Below are positions 1-5,000 of a stretch of DNA of 5,410 bases, piece after piece. A model generated the notes under the pieces. It did not search any database, had not been told where the DNA came from, and saw only the letters and a list, made by a program, of their open reading frames with translations. The position numbers were made by a program, and so were the translations under genes. Source of the stretch: a virus (taxonomy: Duplodnaviria; Heunggongvirae; Uroviricota; Caudoviricetes); IMG/VR virus record IMGVR_UViG_2737471817_000013, one strand, 5' to 3'. Every line of letters starts with the position of its first letter. The first letter of the stretch is position 1.

Positions 1-1818
1 TTAATTTTTACTATCGTCATTAGTGACCGATACACATGATGGCATCCAGTCTTCTGATTCCTCCGTCAGTGTCACGTTTGAACGAAAACCGTGCTTCGTT
101 TTCCGTTTCATATACTCCCTGCCATATTCCGCCATTGCCCCCGGCATATCTTTACCGAAGCGCGTCAGTGTTACAGGTTTACCAAACCCATGTGCCCTCA
201 TATAAGCCAGATAGGCATGATAGAGATACCTACGTGGGCTGAATGGCACAATTTCAGCATTACCCACTAACAGGCCATCACACATTACCGACGCCATGAG
301 ATAGCCGCAGAAGTCCACCAGCGAATCCCCCTCTCGCTTTATCGCCAGTGCTTCTTCAGATTTCTGCTGCTCATATAACAGGCGTCTGGCTTCGTCCTGG
401 TCAGCAAACCGTGTAAGCAGATGGCGAATCACTACCGCCAGCTCACCTTCTATTTTTTCCGCCAGCATGGGGTCGCGCTCGTTCTCCGGTACAACCTCCG
501 AAAAATTGAATATCACCCGACGACGTGAGATCCCCCCGCTGCGGTCACTGAATGACATGGCGTTATTGTTCACCGCCAGCACGACCGCCTGAATGCGTGT
601 TGAGTAGGGGGCTTTATGCTTCGGGTCGATTGCCACCTTGTCACCGCCTGTAATGGCCTTAATTCCTGCGCCATCACCAGCGTAGCGGGTCATATCCGGC
701 ATGATAATCAGCGAAAAGCCAACCACTAACGCGCGTTCCCTTGCATCTTCCAGCGCCTTCATGCTTGCCGATACTGTGTTGGCCTTACCTGCCAGCATGG
801 TGCAAATCTCCGCCATCACGCTTTTACCACTTCCCCCTGGACCTGTTACCTCAATGAATAACTGCCAGTCGTACCGGTTCGCCAGCACCATGAATAATGC
901 AGCCAGCACGCGATCCGCCTTGCGGTCATTCTCAGCCACCGAACGGCGTAACCACTTCCAGAAATTCGGCGCATGTGTTGCCAGCGTTTCCCCCTCTGCT
1001 GGTGGGCTGAAAGGTAATTCACTGGCAATTAACAACCAGTCGTTTTTGTTATGCTCCCGAAAATTACCTGTTCTGGTATCAAATACCCCGTTACTGAATC
1101 CAATCAGGTTACGGGCTGTATTCCCCATTACAGGCAAACTTAACTTCATGGTATCGACCGCCGATTTAATGGCGTTCTGCGAATAGCTGATCTCCGCATC
1201 AATGAAAATCTGTGCCATAGCTCGCTGTAATTCTTTATCCTGAATCGGCTCCCATACAACGCCGTTGTAATGGTGAACAGTGTCAGAGTCAGCATGAATC
1301 GCCAGTTCACCGCCATAATGTGCCAGGAGAACTTCGCCGCGTTGACTTGCTCCCATCTGGTTAAGCGCCAGTGATGAAGCGTTACCGTCTTTTACCCGCT
1401 CTTTTTTCTTTACAGGCAGTTCAACTACCTTTTTCTTTTCCGCCTGCTCTGCCCGTTCACGTTCCAGATATTCGCGCCAGTTCTCCCGTTTCTGGCTGTG
1501 CATTCCTTCAGGGTAATAATCAGCATCCCTGACACCTGCCACTGCCAGTTTCTGCCCGATGGTATTAACAAGCCCCGGACGCAATAACCCCGCCTGATAG
1601 AGACGCACGCGATAGCGTCCGTCCGGTACGATTTGCAGGTTGTCCAGTTCGGCAAGTTGTTGCTCTCCAAGCCAGACAGGAGGCACGTTATCGCCAGCCA
1701 GTCGCCCGTCCTGTTCCTGCCACTGATTCGCATGTGCCCACGCATCACTACCCGCAAAAATGATGACTTCCGTCATTTTGTCACGCGGCTGGTGTTTTAA
1801 ATTTGGCGCTTTTTTCAT
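1..1818 (-). CDS. P4 alpha-like replication protein (primase/helicase: D5_N-like region followed by P4-family primase C-terminal P-loop ATPase domain)
   Basis: 605-codon ORF ending in TAA at 3..1. ATG at 1818..1816 overlaps the TGA of the upstream ORF (ATGA coupling) and is preceded by GGAGAGAG about 8 nt upstream; the ORF-track start at 1833 is a GTG five codons further up. Walker A GPGGSGKS is encoded at 820..843. Downstream motifs (KAITGGDKVAIDPKHKAP, VNNNAMSFSD, RRRVIFNF) and the upstream NGVFDTRTG block match what I remember of the D5_N / P4-primase C-terminal family. A K/E-rich charged linker is encoded at about 1384..1479. Confidence 0.9.
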   Translation of the reverse strand: MKKAPNLKHQPRDKMTEVIIFAGSDAWAHANQWQEQDGRLAGDNVPPVWLGEQQLAELDNLQIVPDGRYRVRLYQAGLLRPGLVNTIGQKLAVAGVRDADYYPEGMHSQKRENWREYLERERAEQAEKKKVVELPVKKKERVKDGNASSLALNQMGASQRGEVLLAHYGGELAIHADSDTVHHYNGVVWEPIQDKELQRAMAQIFIDAEISYSQNAIKSAVDTMKLSLPVMGNTARNLIGFSNGVFDTRTGNFREHNKNDWLLIASELPFSPPAEGETLATHAPNFWKWLRRSVAENDRKADRVLAALFMVLANRYDWQLFIEVTGPGGSGKSVMAEICTMLAGKANTVSASMKALEDARERALVVGFSLIIMPDMTRYAGDGAGIKAITGGDKVAIDPKHKAPYSTRIQAVVLAVNNNAMSFSDRSGGISRRRVIFNFSEVVPENERDPMLAEKIEGELAVVIRHLLTRFADQDEARRLLYEQQKSEEALAIKREGDSLVDFCGYLMASVMCDGLLVGNAEIVPFSPRRYLYHAYLAYMRAHGFGKPVTLTRFGKDMPGAMAEYGREYMKRKTKHGFRSNVTLTEESEDWMPSCVSVTNDDSKN

Positions 1819-2114
1819 TTCTGCTCTCTCCACGCGGCAATCATGTTTTTCAGTTCCTGTAGTTTTTTATCAACATCCATACATGACACATGGTTATTTC
1901 TGGAAAGCGGGATTTCCCGCCGGAATCTGCAAATAAAGATCTCCACGTTCAGCGAACTATGAAATGAATAGCCATCACGAATAAAATAAACACGGTCAAA
2001 CATCAGTTCTTTTACCGTTACTCTGTTACCGTTCTTATCCAGATAAATAGCGCCGGGGATAATTTTGGGGTGTGCATAACCGCTGGCAGTCAAGCCAGAT
2101 AAATATGTTCTCAT
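1815..2114 (-). CDS. Hypothetical small protein (99 aa), translationally coupled to the primase gene
   Basis: ATG at 2114..2112 with GGGGAT about 9 nt upstream. Its TGA stop overlaps the primase ATG. It starts 6 nt after the stop of the preceding ORF. I recognise no family. Confidence 0.6.
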   Translation of the reverse strand: MRTYLSGLTASGYAHPKIIPGAIYLDKNGNRVTVKELMFDRVYFIRDGYSFHSSLNVEIFICRFRREIPLSRNNHVSCMDVDKKLQELKNMIAAWREQK

Positions 2115-2120
2115 GATTAT

Positions 2121-2441
2121 TTATCCCCGATTTGAATCAGTATTCGCTTTCTTTATGGCATTTAATGCATCTGTGGCATTTTCAATGGTGCACCGTAACG
2201 AAATATCAAACTGCCCAAGCATTGCCAGTAACAAACCGATATTACCCATATCAATGCGCATAGCCTTTTCGTCATAGTCCTCATTTTCTGACGCATGCCA
2301 CATCAGGCTACCAATTGACGCAACAGCCATTGATATATTGTCAGTAGCCCCATCCGCAGCGGAATAAACCTTTTTAGCAATATCATGCTCACAGTTAAAA
2401 TGCGGATTAATCAGGTACTGGTAATTTGACATATCAGGCAT
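2121..2441 (-). CDS. Hypothetical small protein (106 aa)
   Basis: ATG at 2441..2439 preceded by AGGGGG about 8 nt upstream, overlapping the last codons of the upstream ORF by 8 nt. An alternative ATG lies at 2432. The product is acidic; I recognise no family. Confidence 0.6.
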   Translation of the reverse strand: MPDMSNYQYLINPHFNCEHDIAKKVYSAADGATDNISMAVASIGSLMWHASENEDYDEKAMRIDMGNIGLLLAMLGQFDISLRCTIENATDALNAIKKANTDSNRG

Positions 2442-2799
2442 GGCACACCCCCTGACGAATACGGGCGGCGAATACCATCACGCAGCCAGCCGGGGATTGC
2501 TGGCGTGCTTCCTGTTCGCTGGTGGCCTCGATGTGAATTACGCGCGGTTGTGCCGTGCTCAGGGCGATAAAACGCCAGATAAAATTGTTCTCGCATTTCT
2601 GAATAAACAGCGTGTTTTCTTCGCGCCCTTTCCATGTTGCCGAGATATAGCCCATGTCATTGAGCATCTCGCAGGCATCAACCAGCGTATCAGCAGCTAC
2701 GTGTACAGTGTTTTTACCGTCAGCTATGCAATCACGGTGCACCGCCAGGAAGGTGTATATAAATTTAGGGTGAGTTTGGGTATGCTGTGTTCCAGCCAT
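2434..2799 (-). CDS. Hypothetical protein (121 aa), first gene of the primase-proximal operon
   Basis: ATG at 2799..2797 preceded by GAGG (plus-strand cctc at 2808..2811) 8 nt upstream; TGA stop at 2436..2434. Protein-like composition. It is the C-terminal part of the 510-aa ORF-track frame but has its own start signals directly downstream of an AT-rich promoter region. Confidence 0.65.
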   Translation of the reverse strand: MAGTQHTQTHPKFIYTFLAVHRDCIADGKNTVHVAADTLVDACEMLNDMGYISATWKGREENTLFIQKCENNFIWRFIALSTAQPRVIHIEATSEQEARQQSPAGCVMVFAARIRQGVCHA

Positions 2800-2829
2800 A
2801 ATCGTTACCTCATTTAACGGTTTGGTTAG

Positions 2830-2863
2830 ACGCCCCGCTACTGCCGCAAACAGTTCGGGGCGT
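2830..2863 (-). other. GC-rich stem-loop in the putative 5' leader of the primase-proximal operon
   Basis: ACGCCCCG (2830..2837) pairs with CGGGGCGT (2856..2863) around an 18-nt loop that has an internal CTG/CAG pair. It sits between the inferred minus promoter and the RBS at 2808..2811. No U-tract follows on either strand. Confidence 0.3.
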
Positions 2864-2884
2864 TGTCGTTTACATCCTCTTACT

Positions 2885-2986
2885 GAGGTGTGATTTAAAT
2901 TAAATTTAACTGAATCACAGGTCAAGTATTTTTTGTGATTCTTTTTTGTGTATACTGAATCACATCTTTTGTTTAGGAGAATGCAC
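2885..2986. promoter_or_regulatory. Divergent promoter/operator region with four TGTGATT half-sites forming two palindromes
   Basis: TGTGATT at 2889..2895 and 2934..2940; its reverse complement AATCACA at 2913..2919 and 2958..2964. CTGAATCACA is repeated exactly at 2910..2919 and 2955..2964. Plus-strand -10-like TATACT at 2951..2956, then AGGAGA (2975..2980) and ATG at 2987. Minus-strand -35-like TTGACC (plus 2920..2925) and -10-like TAATTT (plus 2897..2902) with a 17-nt spacer, pointing toward the 2799 start. Confidence 0.55.
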
Positions 2987-3292
2987 ATGGCAAAAAACAC
3001 TATCAACGACAAATCAAAACAGATTTCAATTCGTATCCCACATGATGCTTTTGAAGGCATGGAATCCGTAAAACTGGACGGTGAAAGCAACGCCGGATTC
3101 ATAGTAACCGCCATGCGCGGTGAGATCGCCCGCCGCCAGGCAGAAGGAAGCGGAGAAAATCCCCTGGTTTCTTCGCTCGATGCGCTGGCGCAGGTGGAAA
3201 AAATCGGAGTCAAAGCTGCCGAGGAGATCGGGCAGCTCGTCACCGTCGCACGTGAAGAACTCCAGCGCCGCAAGGCCAAAGAATCAGAATAA
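2987..3292 (+). CDS. Ribbon-helix-helix DNA-binding protein, Arc/Mnt-like repressor with a C-terminal helical tail (101 aa)
   Basis: AGGAGA 6 nt upstream of ATG 2987; TAA stop at 3290..3292. Good codon usage. N-terminal KQISIRIP (beta strand), HDAFEGMESVKL (helix A), G-E-S-N-A-G turn and FIVTAMRGEIARR (helix B) follow the RHH pattern of P22 Arc/Mnt (GRS-N-SE turn). The C-terminal 45 residues are A/E/K/L-rich, consistent with an oligomerisation helix. The ORF-track start at 2948 is a GTG inside the promoter and is not preferred. Confidence 0.75.
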   Translation: MAKNTINDKSKQISIRIPHDAFEGMESVKLDGESNAGFIVTAMRGEIARRQAEGSGENPLVSSLDALAQVEKIGVKAAEEIGQLVTVAREELQRRKAKESE

Positions 3293-3349
3293 TAACTATC
3301 ATCGCCGTGGTGTGAGGAACTCCGGCGCATTGCTTTACAGGTACACAGA

Positions 3350-3544
3350 ATGACCAACAAAGAATCAACCAATACACCATCACCGGCACGGAAAAGACGG
3401 CGCAGAAAGATAGAGCACGAATCAGAAAGATTCGCGCCATGTGCTTTTGCCCTTGAGCAATTCCTTAAAGAGTACAGGCGCACAAAAATGGGATCGCATA
3501 CCTGGAAAACATCGCGGCATGGCAATGTTAAAGAGCATGAATAG
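3350..3544 (+). CDS. Doubtful small basic ORF (64 aa) with an arginine-rich N-terminal stretch (ARKRRRRK)
   Basis: ATG at 3350 with a weak AGGT about 8 nt upstream; TAG stop at 3542..3544. It uses several AGA/AGG/CGG/ATA codons that are rare in enterobacterial genes, so coding status is uncertain. Confidence 0.25.
   Translation: MTNKESTNTPSPARKRRRRKIEHESERFAPCAFALEQFLKEYRRTKMGSHTWKTSRHGNVKEHE
3415..3437 (-). terminator. Candidate intrinsic terminator for the alpA operon (hairpin followed by a U-rich tract on the minus strand)
   Basis: GCACGAATC (3415..3423) pairs with GATTCGCGC (3429..3437) with one mismatch around the loop AGAAA. On the minus strand the hairpin is followed by TCTATCTTTCTGCGCCGTCTTTTCC. 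The stem is modest, so this is weakly supported. Confidence 0.3.
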
Positions 3545-3966
3545 CCCACCAGCAAGCCAGCACACTGATCACATTGCCCACCAGCCGCAAATCTGGCATT
3601 GTTGGCAATGTGTTCAAGTGTGTAGCTTTCCCACTGGTGGCCCTCTGCAGTCGCCTTTGTTTTATCCAGAACGAAATCAGACATCAGATTGATCAGCACC
3701 TGGTGACCTGACAAAATCGCATCAGTCACGCCACCAGCAAAATTTTTTGCTTTCCGGACAGCGTGGCCAACGGCATTTTGCAGCGAAATATTCTGCATTT
3801 CTGGCGTGCTGTAGTAACGGTGATCAGTGCCTTCACTCTGTGCGACCACAACGCTATAATCTGCCTCGTAGACAGTAAGCAATATGGCGCAGTAGGCTAT
3901 TCGTTCACAAAGGCGCTCCGGCAACGGGGCGCTTTCTCTTTTTGTAACGGTCAGAGCGTTACACAT
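3545..3966 (-). CDS. Hypothetical protein with a well-supported start but an undeterminable 3' end (no in-frame stop before 2434)
   Basis: ATG at 3966..3964 preceded by GGAGG (plus-strand cctcc at 3976..3980) 9 nt upstream; the start abuts the stop of the upstream gene. The first ~140 codons look protein-like (VTDAILSGHQVLINLMSDFVLDKTKATAEGHQWESYTLEHIANNARF). Beyond about 3545 the translation becomes S/R/C/L-rich and is antisense to plus-strand ORFs. 3545 is a nominal boundary, not an observed stop. Confidence 0.4.
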
Positions 3967-4759
3967 GGCTGTTTTCCTCCATGCGACGGGCTAACCAACG
4001 CTGCGAAAGACGAATTAATTCAGCTTTCCGCTGGTGGTAGCCCTGGCCTAACTCAATCAGCGTGATATTGCTCTGCTCAAGGTAAGAAAGGTGCTCAAGC
4101 TGCAACGTGCTCATGTGGTCGCGTGGTTCGCCTGTGATGCCGTTCGCCTGCGCCCACTGTTTTGCAGTCATGCCACCCAGCACGATACGCGCCAGCATAT
4201 TGGCTTCCGTGGTGTAGTGGTGCTGGAACGTGTTTTTACCCAGTTCAGCCCGGTACGCCTCCAGCGCGGCACACATTGGCTTAAAGTAGCTGGCAACGGT
4301 GATACGGGCTTTCAGTTCCCGGCGTAATGCTGCGGAACGCACTGGCGCTACCTTGTGTAGCTCCTCCTCGCATTTGATAAAGTACTGGCGAACGGCGCGG
4401 CCCTGTTCGGTACGTTCGACCATCGCCAGTTCTTTCGCCATATTCACTGTGATGATGTACTCAAGAGCGGTTTGCTGGCGAGATTTTGCGCTCACCGGAT
4501 CGGGTCGGCTCAAATATTCAACAACCTCATAATCCACGCCTTCCGTGAACCCGTATTCTTCAATGCGCCCCTTGATCCACGAACGGAAAACGCGCCCTAC
4601 ACCTAACGCCTTATGTAACGCTCTGGCGCTAACAATAGTGGTTTCACGCCCACCAATAACGCCGGAAATAACCGGAATAATTTCAGCGAAATTTTGCAGA
4701 TTCTGTTTTTCAGGCCGAACGAAGCCCCGCCCCTGTACAGGCGTATATCCAGTATTCAT
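3959..4759 (-). CDS. Phage regulatory / antirepressor-like protein (Rha or KilA-N/ORF6N-type N-terminal DNA-binding region with ORF6C-like C-terminal region), 266 aa
   Basis: ATG at 4759..4757; TAA stop at 3961..3959. The N-terminal segment TIVSARALHKALGVGRVFRSWIKGRIEEYGFTEGVDYEV and the C-terminal segment TEANMLARIVLGGMTAKQWAQANGITGEPRDHMSTLQLEHLSYLEQSNITLIELGQGYHQRKAEL resemble phage Rha/Ant-type regulators as I remember them. The exact Pfam family is not certain. The RBS is weak. Confidence 0.75.
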   Translation of the reverse strand: MNTGYTPVQGRGFVRPEKQNLQNFAEIIPVISGVIGGRETTIVSARALHKALGVGRVFRSWIKGRIEEYGFTEGVDYEVVEYLSRPDPVSAKSRQQTALEYIITVNMAKELAMVERTEQGRAVRQYFIKCEEELHKVAPVRSAALRRELKARITVASYFKPMCAALEAYRAELGKNTFQHHYTTEANMLARIVLGGMTAKQWAQANGITGEPRDHMSTLQLEHLSYLEQSNITLIELGQGYHQRKAELIRLSQRWLARRMEENSHV

Positions 4760-4811: not shown

Positions 4812-5000
4812 TTAGTGAACTGCCTCGCGGCTGTCCTTCCATGCCAGAACTTCGGATAAAGACCAGCCAACGGAACGACCACCGAGTTTACGCCGTGATG
4901 GGAATTGTCCGGCTTTTTCCAGGCGGTAGCGGCATGAACGGCTCAGGCCTGTAAGTTGCTGACATTCTTTTTCACGTATAAAGCGATCTGTGCTTAACAC
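4812..5000 (-). CDS. alpA: AlpA/Vis-family phage transcriptional regulator (excisionase-like winged helix), 62 aa from a GTG start
   Basis: RFIREKECQQLTGLSRSCRYRLEKAGQFPSRRKLGGRSVGWSLSEVLAWK aligns by eye with E. coli AlpA (RILRLPAVIQKTGMARATIYDWL...MLGVKSVGWIEAEIDEWL). GTG at 5000..4998 is preceded by GGGGG (plus 5005..5009) 4 nt upstream. The ORF-track 104-aa version begins at a TTG at 5126, and its extra N-terminus is the translation of a (CCCAA)n repeat. TAA stop at 4814..4812. Confidence 0.8.
   Translation of the reverse strand: MLSTDRFIREKECQQLTGLSRSCRYRLEKAGQFPSRRKLGGRSVGWSLSEVLAWKDSREAVH

Follow-up and report, generated by a model that had tools for sequence, protein, structure and literature searches.

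A stop-free reading frame antisense to an operon with an Arc-like candidate repressor gene in a satellite island, a probable counterpart of the P4 eta gene

The closest described relative of the locus reported here is the eta/kil region of the satellite phage P4 (NC_001609). There the eta frame (8168..8812, 214 aa) overlaps the end of vis, a gene of the AlpA family, and holds the C4/CI and isrK/seqA RNAs; Kil corresponds to its last 65 aa. The eta gene contains a constitutive promoter, and the CI RNA leads to early termination of transcription; Kil is a truncated Eta, and translation of full-length Eta, which takes place only from the upstream late promoter in coupling with the alpA homologue, prevents the termination (PMC10111431, citing Forti et al. 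1999, J Bacteriol 181:5225). We have analysed a 5,410-nt stretch of DNA from a tailed virus (IMG/VR record IMGVR_UViG_2737471817_000013), which is called the window and in whose coordinates all positions are given. Its minus strand contains a 510-codon open frame which ends in a Kil/Icd-like gene and runs antisense through an operon headed by an Arc-like ribbon-helix-helix (RHH) gene.

Single features of this locus are also found in other systems. In the P22 immI region, the RHH repressors Mnt and Arc control Pant. The window likewise seems to have a small Arc-type RHH gene divergent from a promoter that it presumably controls, with short repeated operators, and the profile of the gene family matches Arc, whereas the P22 repressor gene is not placed antisense within an open frame. 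The immI region of P1 and P7 (c4 antisense RNA, icd and ant), which is generally known in the case of P1, resembles the window in having an Icd-family cell-division inhibitor beside a gene of an antirepressor family in an immunity-controlled operon. The window differs in the order (antA, then icd), and no C4 RNA was detected in it. We know of no long bridging frame in P1. In classical polarity, the translating ribosome denies Rho access to the nascent RNA, pushes the polymerase forward and aids its passage through roadblocks. The mechanism which we propose for the window frame would be identical, but this frame seems to be selected only for openness and spans 1.2 kb of antisense and promoter DNA in place of an ordinary gene or short leader peptide. 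Antisense 'shadow' ORFs and proposed overlapping genes in enterobacteria are also long ORFs opposite annotated genes. The window frame fits neither the class of shadow ORFs nor that of dual-coding pairs, since its openness is selected and its amino acid sequence is not.

The window appears to match the P4 eta/kil layout feature by feature except for the immunity element, in whose place the antisense RHH operon is found. In both, the Kil/Icd-type gene is the 3′ end of a longer frame and has its own start and ribosome-binding site; the long frame begins upstream of an internal, presumably immunity-controlled promoter, shows coupling to the alpA/vis operon, continues into the primase operon and encloses the immunity determinant, a candidate one in the window. 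The differences are that P4 eta has 214 codons with the C4/CI and isrK/seqA RNAs on the same strand, whereas the window frame has 510 codons without them and holds a divergent, antisense, protein-coding operon with its own putative promoter, operators and terminator, and that the eta-specific parts have no detectable sequence similarity. The principle is thus already known from P4. We assign a probability of about 0.68 to the whole reading, according to which the frame is the counterpart of P4 eta, the nested icd gene is the counterpart of kil, and ribosomes follow the polymerase across the antisense repressor operon into kil/icd and the replication genes.

The relationship of the 3′ end to Kil and Icd is indicated by several profile and sequence matches. 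The C-terminus of the long product (residues 462–505) matches the Icd-like model NCBIfam NF033153 (E=1.9e-21), PHROG 1743 matches both the window product (E=4e-28) and P4 Eta (E=1.4e-20), PHROGs 1743, 29966 and 6928 are common to the two, and BLASTP aligns the Icd-like start with the N-terminus of P4 Kil (E=1e-4). Judged by these matches, the 121-codon 3′ end is homologous to P4 Kil and P1 Icd.

The PHROGs of the Kil/Icd/Eta group (1743, 6196 and 6928) carry the label 'transcriptional repressor'. This label appears to have been inherited from an old P4 CDS named 'cI gene product' (8168..8584 of the P4 record, our locus L005), although P4 CI is an RNA.

The original prediction had described 2434..3966 as a 1,533-nt stop-free frame with a strong ribosome-binding site at its start, which passes through the antisense of the RHH gene and the AT-rich divergent promoter in phase into the 121-aa gene, and this description was accurate. 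The frame has no internal stop, in comparison with 17–32 in each of the other five frames, and a GGAGGA motif with an 8-nt spacer precedes its ATG; the nearest in-frame stop upstream is at 3991..3993. From its start the frame covers about 365 nt without an annotated gene, then the antisense of a 64-aa ORF and of the YlcI/YnfO (RHH) gene, then the intergenic region 2800..2986, and enters the Icd-like gene in phase. Within 2800..2990, the plus-strand triplets in this register include TAA twice, TGA three times and TAG twice, as had been noticed, and never TTA, CTA or TCA, which occur 6 and 8 times in the other two registers. The earlier estimate of about 1e-5 for some 250 stop-free codons was of the right order, (61/64)^250 being 6e-6. 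By its layout the frame is translationally coupled at both ends, to antA at the 5′ end, where its ATG overlaps the antA stop codon (3959..3961) in the sequence ATGTGTAA, and to the ORF 2121..2441 at the 3′ end.

Measured from stop to stop, the frame has 518, 520 and 536 codons in homologous loci of 99.5%, 96.7% and 89% identity, and a protein search with the long product provided many full-length homologues (400–533 aa, down to 55% identity) in Escherichia, E. marmotae and Salmonella, some of which are named 'Icd-like protein' at NCBI. Aligned with each other, these homologues are conserved at the N-terminus and in the Icd part, while their middle is a mosaic of unrelated peptides and deletions, open throughout. 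Since such a sample is biased to long ORFs, loci were also gathered by the Icd-like gene alone. With the 121-aa protein as the only query, 10 loci were obtained from one-genome-per-species contigs and 80 from viral contigs, and these 90 loci formed 50 clusters at 98.5% identity. In 42 of the 50 clusters, the Icd frame had no stop over 226 or more upstream codons or as far as the end of the contig. In the 900 nt upstream of the Icd core, it had 2.9 stops on average and none at all in 25 clusters, whereas the other five frames had means of 9.7–18.2 stops and were stop-free in no cluster. The long frame is the usual condition in Escherichia, Salmonella, Enterobacter, Rahnella, Intestinirhabdus, Superficieibacter and others, and the alignment with related elements that had been proposed as a check thus found the open frame conserved. 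Coupling is similarly widespread. Of 33 representatives, 22 (the window among them) begin the long frame with a start codon that either overlaps the stop of the co-directional ORF before it (-8, -4) or is separated from that stop by about 10 nt at most; this ORF is antA, in many cases alpA itself, or another gene. The following ORF overlaps the long-frame stop by 8 nt in 28 of the 33, and a Shine-Dalgarno motif is present at many of the starts.

These comparisons bear on the possibility that the frame is a strain-specific lesion, either a lost stop or frameshift which fused a gene of about 140 codons to the following sequence and made the ORF beginning at 3966 a pseudogene, or an RHH cassette inserted into a formerly longer gene. 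Breakage by 1-nt indels does occur in a few relatives: single-base deletions set the locus L084 apart from the intact L088, and frame switches are seen in L059 and L082. However, the long frame is the common state across many genera and broken copies are exceptional. An in-frame stop near 3545, which should be present in homologous loci if the stop had been lost in this strain, was looked for and found in no relative, so that the pseudogene is refuted, and a cassette insertion leaves the stop avoidance and the multiple-of-three length changes described below unexplained. We therefore consider a lesion of either kind hardly credible. Selection for an open frame, offered together with these two options in the original prediction, is the one that is supported.

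The 510-codon frame is kept open by selection. The region between the RHH gene and icd occurs among the relatives in at least 12 versions (immunity types), which are not homologous and share a layout consisting of TTGAC/A at position 62, a GC hairpin and the icd ribosome-binding site, with a different motif in each type. All 12 versions (145–208 nt, 37–45% GC) have no stop in the eta frame, in contrast to 3–8 stops in the other same-strand frames, and the shuffle probability of this openness is 0.004–0.07 for each of them. Their lengths differ by multiples of 3 only and the eta phase is unchanged. That the intergenic length is 1 mod 3 and that the RHH gene is always in the same phase are one and the same fact, which was counted once.

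The genes embedded in the frame bear the same imprint. All of them occupy the single phase in which the wobble positions of both strands coincide, and an antisense stop in this phase arises only where CAN follows NNT or TAY follows NNY. Among embedded genes from 21 clusters with at most 70% mutual identity, no such context was found at 73 CAN or at 12 TAY codons (0/85 in total, P ~2e-12), and tyrosine makes up only 0.9% of the residues. The same contexts are present in other window genes at 15/87 CAN and 27/42 TAY codons, and that antisense frame has about 3.5% stops in them. A tblastn search with the YlcI protein against phages, meant to provide a lambdoid control, gave no match, and the homologous RHH genes of islands without the long frame were therefore used as the control; they have 2 and 4 stops in that antisense frame, whereas the embedded ones have none. 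Among close homologues, about 10.7 stop-creating changes were expected and none was observed.

An open frame might also be a passive by-product of base composition or of the plus-strand codon structure, neither translated nor selected. Antisense frames of real genes can indeed be long, the chance that the YlcI gene is open in antisense, given its protein, is about 0.2 by a hand estimate, and opposite icd itself there is an open plus-strand shadow frame. Such a by-product does not agree with the stops in the same antisense frame of other window genes and of the homologous RHH genes outside long frames, with the non-coding promoter regions of 12 unrelated types being all open and in phase while their length changes are always multiples of three, or with the coupling of the frame start to an upstream stop. 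This explanation is very improbable.

Outside the Icd part the amino acid sequence of the long frame is unconstrained. Substitutions among distinct homologues, counted by long-frame codon position (1/2/3), were 51/45/41 in 3545..3966 and 21/26/27 in the intergenic region, as compared with 32/28/74 in icd. Over the antisense of the RHH gene they were 3/12/32 by long-frame position, which is 12/3/32 in RHH positions, a normal coding pattern. The proposed check of codon-position periodicity thus gave a coding pattern in the icd and RHH codons only, and a flat one in 3545..3966 and in the intergenic region. In the 5′ part (3545..3909) dN/dS was about 0.7–1.6. As simple dN/dS cannot separate two strands whose wobble positions coincide, a two-frame classification was used for the antisense part; it gave 0.33–0.67 for the RHH frame (0.36–0.46 for the YlcI/YnfO gene at 2987..3292) and 0.59–1.19 for the eta frame. 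A true dual-coding antisense pair was rejected on this ground, only the RHH frame showing a purifying pattern.

The main alternative for the product itself is that the full-length 510-aa polypeptide is a functional multi-domain protein whose N-terminal and middle parts have a specific activity. Homologues of 400–533 aa are annotated by gene callers and at NCBI, the first ~130 residues are of ordinary composition with predicted helices, and no function of the P4 Eta protein is known to us. The expected traces of a protein are nevertheless missing: the substitutions in 3545..3966 are flat by codon position with dN/dS close to 1, the antisense part is constrained along the RHH codons, and the peptides encoded across the 12 immunity types are unrelated. 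Residues 142–389 have an odd composition, with much Ser, Arg and Cys and little Glu and Gln, and neither the whole product nor its first 140 aa had any match in Pfam and NCBIfam besides the C-terminal Icd-like one. AlphaFold2 on an alignment of 17 sequences gave a mean pLDDT of 29 and values below 50 outside Icd, which is weak evidence for a missing eta-specific fold because the alignment is shallow. A functional long protein is, on this evidence, unlikely. The first ~140 codons had been called protein-like in the original prediction; this holds for their composition, but a real protein domain was not borne out by codon periodicity, dN/dS or pLDDT.

The wobble positions of the RHH gene of the opposite-strand unit coincide with those of the long frame. 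Every long frame among the relatives holds a small opposite-strand gene, and all these genes align as one family with an N-terminal strand containing xRxPH, a helix, a G-E-S turn and a second helix. The profile of the family matches P22 Arc (1b28, residues 5–49, E=9.5e-4) and, more weakly, other CopG/Arc proteins; DUF3950 is matched by some members and NF041551 by the window copy. One or two more small genes usually come after the RHH gene. Upstream of it, three to five copies of type-specific 7–11-mers are found about 23, 46, 68 and 92 nt from the RHH ATG, and these operator-like motifs co-vary with the RHH N-terminus across the 12 types. In the window the motif is TGTGATT/AATCACA, in four copies (2889–2895, 2913–2919, 2934–2940 and 2958–2964). 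To judge by this co-variation, the intergenic versions and the RHH N-termini look like classical heteroimmune repressor/operator pairs. As the RHH operon is followed by a terminator-like hairpin (Table 1), the eta-specific part of the long frame corresponds to one whole antisense transcription unit.

On this basis we propose that the 510-codon frame is the counterpart of P4 eta and the nested 121-aa gene that of P4 kil. Between antA and icd there would be a complete opposite-strand unit consisting of a promoter with operators (2800..2986), the Arc-like RHH gene, the 64-aa gene and a terminator (~3945). While the island is quiescent, the RHH protein would bind the four operator repeats and, as the repressor of the internal icd promoter, hold it down. 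Once the alpA operon is switched on, RNA polymerase would cross about 1.2 kb antisense through the RHH unit. The long frame, which bridges exactly this unit, is coupled at both ends and ends in the Kil/Icd homologue, would keep a ribosome behind the polymerase all along, with entry by coupling at the antA stop. By analogy with P4, this trailing ribosome would shield the otherwise untranslated RNA from Rho and help the polymerase past the bound repressor, and immunity would then no longer affect the expression that icd and the replication genes receive from the upstream promoter.

Several observations weigh against this proposal. The long frame is missing in 8 of the 50 clusters. Three of these exceptions have the embedded operon and either a shifted low-stop frame or 1-nt indels, and look like recent frameshifts, but the other five are built differently, cargo genes separating alpA from icd in at least two of them (L042 and L049), from which it follows that elements can work without the long frame. 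The analogy with P4 is partial, as the Rfam C4 and isrK models had no match in the window (E<=1) nor in the 30 relatives scanned, whereas the P4 positive control scored 74.9 and 60.8 bits. The stop-avoidance counts were made on loci having the long frame (42/50 clusters), which introduces some ascertainment bias, and the P values overstate independence because the variants share a conserved leader and a common ancestry. The direction of the stop-avoidance evidence is clear in spite of both caveats. Finally, a scan of C-over-G skew along the eta-strand RNA revealed no clear rut-like bubble, and the Rho step therefore rests on analogy.

This last result leaves room for a frame that is translated for a main purpose other than Rho blocking. 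Translation might keep the sense RNA from pairing with the convergent RHH transcript, strengthen transcriptional interference shutting off the repressor operon, or deliver Kil as an inactive fusion. The almost exact coincidence of the eta-specific part with the antisense unit, from the promoter at ~2960 to the terminator at ~3945, is in favour of such purposes, as is the lack of a clear rut signature, whereas the P4 precedent points to termination control (PMC10111431). We consider these purposes unlikely, although the observations in the window do not discriminate between them and the Rho-blocking proposal.

In more general terms, and with somewhat better than even odds in our judgement, widespread enterobacterial satellites keep a 'translation bridge' of 0.7–1.9 kb, an ORF selected purely for lacking stops which runs antisense through a whole Arc-like repressor operon with its bidirectional promoter, operators and terminator. 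The embedded genes would pay for it in synonymous codons and few tyrosines, and the bridge would let helper-induced transcription override a so far unrecognized protein-based immunity of the Gram-negative phage-inducible chromosomal islands (PICIs). Literature searches on YlcI/YnfO and on P4-like or Icd-like antisense overlaps returned nothing relevant, and in the accessible literature we found no account of the P4 principle extended to a protein-based heteroimmune region lying antisense inside the frame, nor of a codon-usage imprint on genes embedded in such a frame. The locus is an unusually clean natural case of selection on the translatability of a long DNA stretch instead of on the encoded protein, visibly shaping codon choice on the other strand. 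It would extend the eta/kil idea from an RNA-based to a protein-based immunity region, and suggests for Gram-negative PICI-type islands a repressor that exists in many heteroimmune specificities. It also offers a system for studies of transcription–translation coupling and Rho polarity across convergent transcription units.

Uneven database annotation would be accounted for in the same way. Some genomes have a 400–533-aa 'host cell division inhibitor Icd-like protein', and others a 74–121-aa Icd-like protein, a YlcI/YnfO protein and a 64–66-aa hypothetical protein. The RHH gene goes unannotated where the long ORF is called. The PGAP annotation of three RefSeq genomes is confined to the 64-aa ORF, the YlcI/YnfO gene and the short form of the Icd-like gene, and leaves 3545..3958 empty.

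Table 1. Positions of the long frame, the genes and signals lying within it, and the neighbouring genes in the window
Feature	Position	Strand	Basis or remark
Long eta-like open frame, 510 codons	2434..3966	-	ORF list; ATG start
Shine-Dalgarno motif GGAGGA	3975..3980	-	8-nt spacer to ATG 3966..3964; visible in the sequence itself
5′ part of the bridging frame	3545..3909	-	Open; antisense to the 3′ untranslated tail of the plus-strand operon; no family match; pLDDT <50
Icd-like/Kil-homologous gene, 121 aa	2434..2799	-	Own ATG at 2799; GAGG ribosome-binding site 2808..2811, 8 nt before ATG
Divergent promoter/operator (immunity) region, putative	2800..2986	both	38.5% GC; -35-like TTGACC at 2925..2920 (-)
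GC-rich hairpin (ACGCCCCG...CGGGGCGT) in the icd leader	2830..2863		Conserved across the 12 immunity types, with compensatory stem variants
Arc-like RHH gene, YlcI/YnfO family, 101 aa, candidate immunity repressor	2987..3292	+	NF041551, E=3.7e-18; inside the long frame, antisense
64-aa gene, second of the plus-strand operon (phrog_21027)	3350..3544	+	Same phase as the RHH gene
Intrinsic-terminator-like hairpin and T-run, would end the RHH operon	3910..3945	+	Under codons 8–19 of the long frame
alpA (family of P4 Vis)	4812..5000	-	Pfam PF05930, E=3e-18; first gene of the induced operon
antA (AntA/AntB antirepressor family)	3959..4759	-	Pfam PF08346, E=2.5e-23; PGAP annotation in relatives; upstream gene coupled to the long frame
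106-aa ORF, next after the long frame	2121..2441	-	ORF list

The genes of the minus strand of the window are, in order, alpA, antA, the long frame with its Icd-like end, the 106-aa ORF, a DUF4222 gene and a D5/DUF5906 primase. The primase (1..1833) is reached from the long frame via a series of overlapping ORFs, and the long frame thus belongs to an operon running into the primase and replication genes. In E. coli JNU, an island 99.5% identical to the window lies beside tRNA-Thr with an integrase upstream, and has ProQ/FinO-family, PerC-family and DUF2213 genes downstream of the primase. A check of the annotation of this near-identical island revealed no psu, sid or delta. Matching sequence is present in 1,840 E. 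coli genomes. With such a gene content the island looks PICI-type, a relative of P4, and the window appears to be its regulatory and replication arm. The order of the island would then be int, alpA, antA, the long frame, icd/kil, small ORFs, DUF4222 and primase. The Rfam int-alpA RNA (RF02996) is found between int and alpA in relatives (L006 2285..2353, L009 2186..2251 and L014 1836..1901); the window ends before that region.

The hairpin in the icd leader precedes the icd ATG by about 30 nt (stem end at 2830, ATG at 2799). Read on the plus strand, it is followed by TTGTCGTTT, and for this reason it resembles a terminator facing the direction of the RHH gene. It could terminate a cis-antisense RNA spanning the icd start. 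The plus-strand ORF 2440..2817 (125 aa) is antisense to icd in exact codon register and is open in L042 and L049 too; since only about 3 stops would be expected (P ~0.05), it is probably a shadow ORF.

In the 5′ part of the long frame, a DNA element of 33–56 nt at 3564..3619 (core 3574..3605), which reads CCAACAATGCCACATTTGCGGCTGGTGGGCAATGTGATCAGT on the eta strand, is kept in most mosaic variants of the frame despite differing flanks. The window copy has 9-nt inverted arms, CACATTGCC (3571–3579) and GGCAATGTG (3605–3613).

The plus-strand operon varies among the relatives. L081 (2219..4180) has two tandem RHH cassettes, with RHH genes at 3045..2734 and 3780..3601, in one open frame of 653 codons. 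Lipoprotein-like proteins of 50–54 aa, with a hydrophobic stretch followed by Cys, are encoded in the same phase as the RHH gene in L017 (3579..3427), L071 (2173..2021), L081 (2679..2527) and L025 (2415..2251). The layout without the long frame in L042 (1867..2997) and L049 (2954..3864) comprises cargo genes of 291 and 227 aa and a different small Arc-like gene divergent from icd. When the long product was compared with phage genomes by tblastn, only weak partial matches were obtained. One of these was to a Klebsiella record resembling a capsid-encoding satellite (L004, phage record LR881103), which has a 324-aa ORF with an Icd-like end at 4521..5495, after two co-directional genes, and the bridging-frame layout may on this account reach elements of the cf-PICI type.

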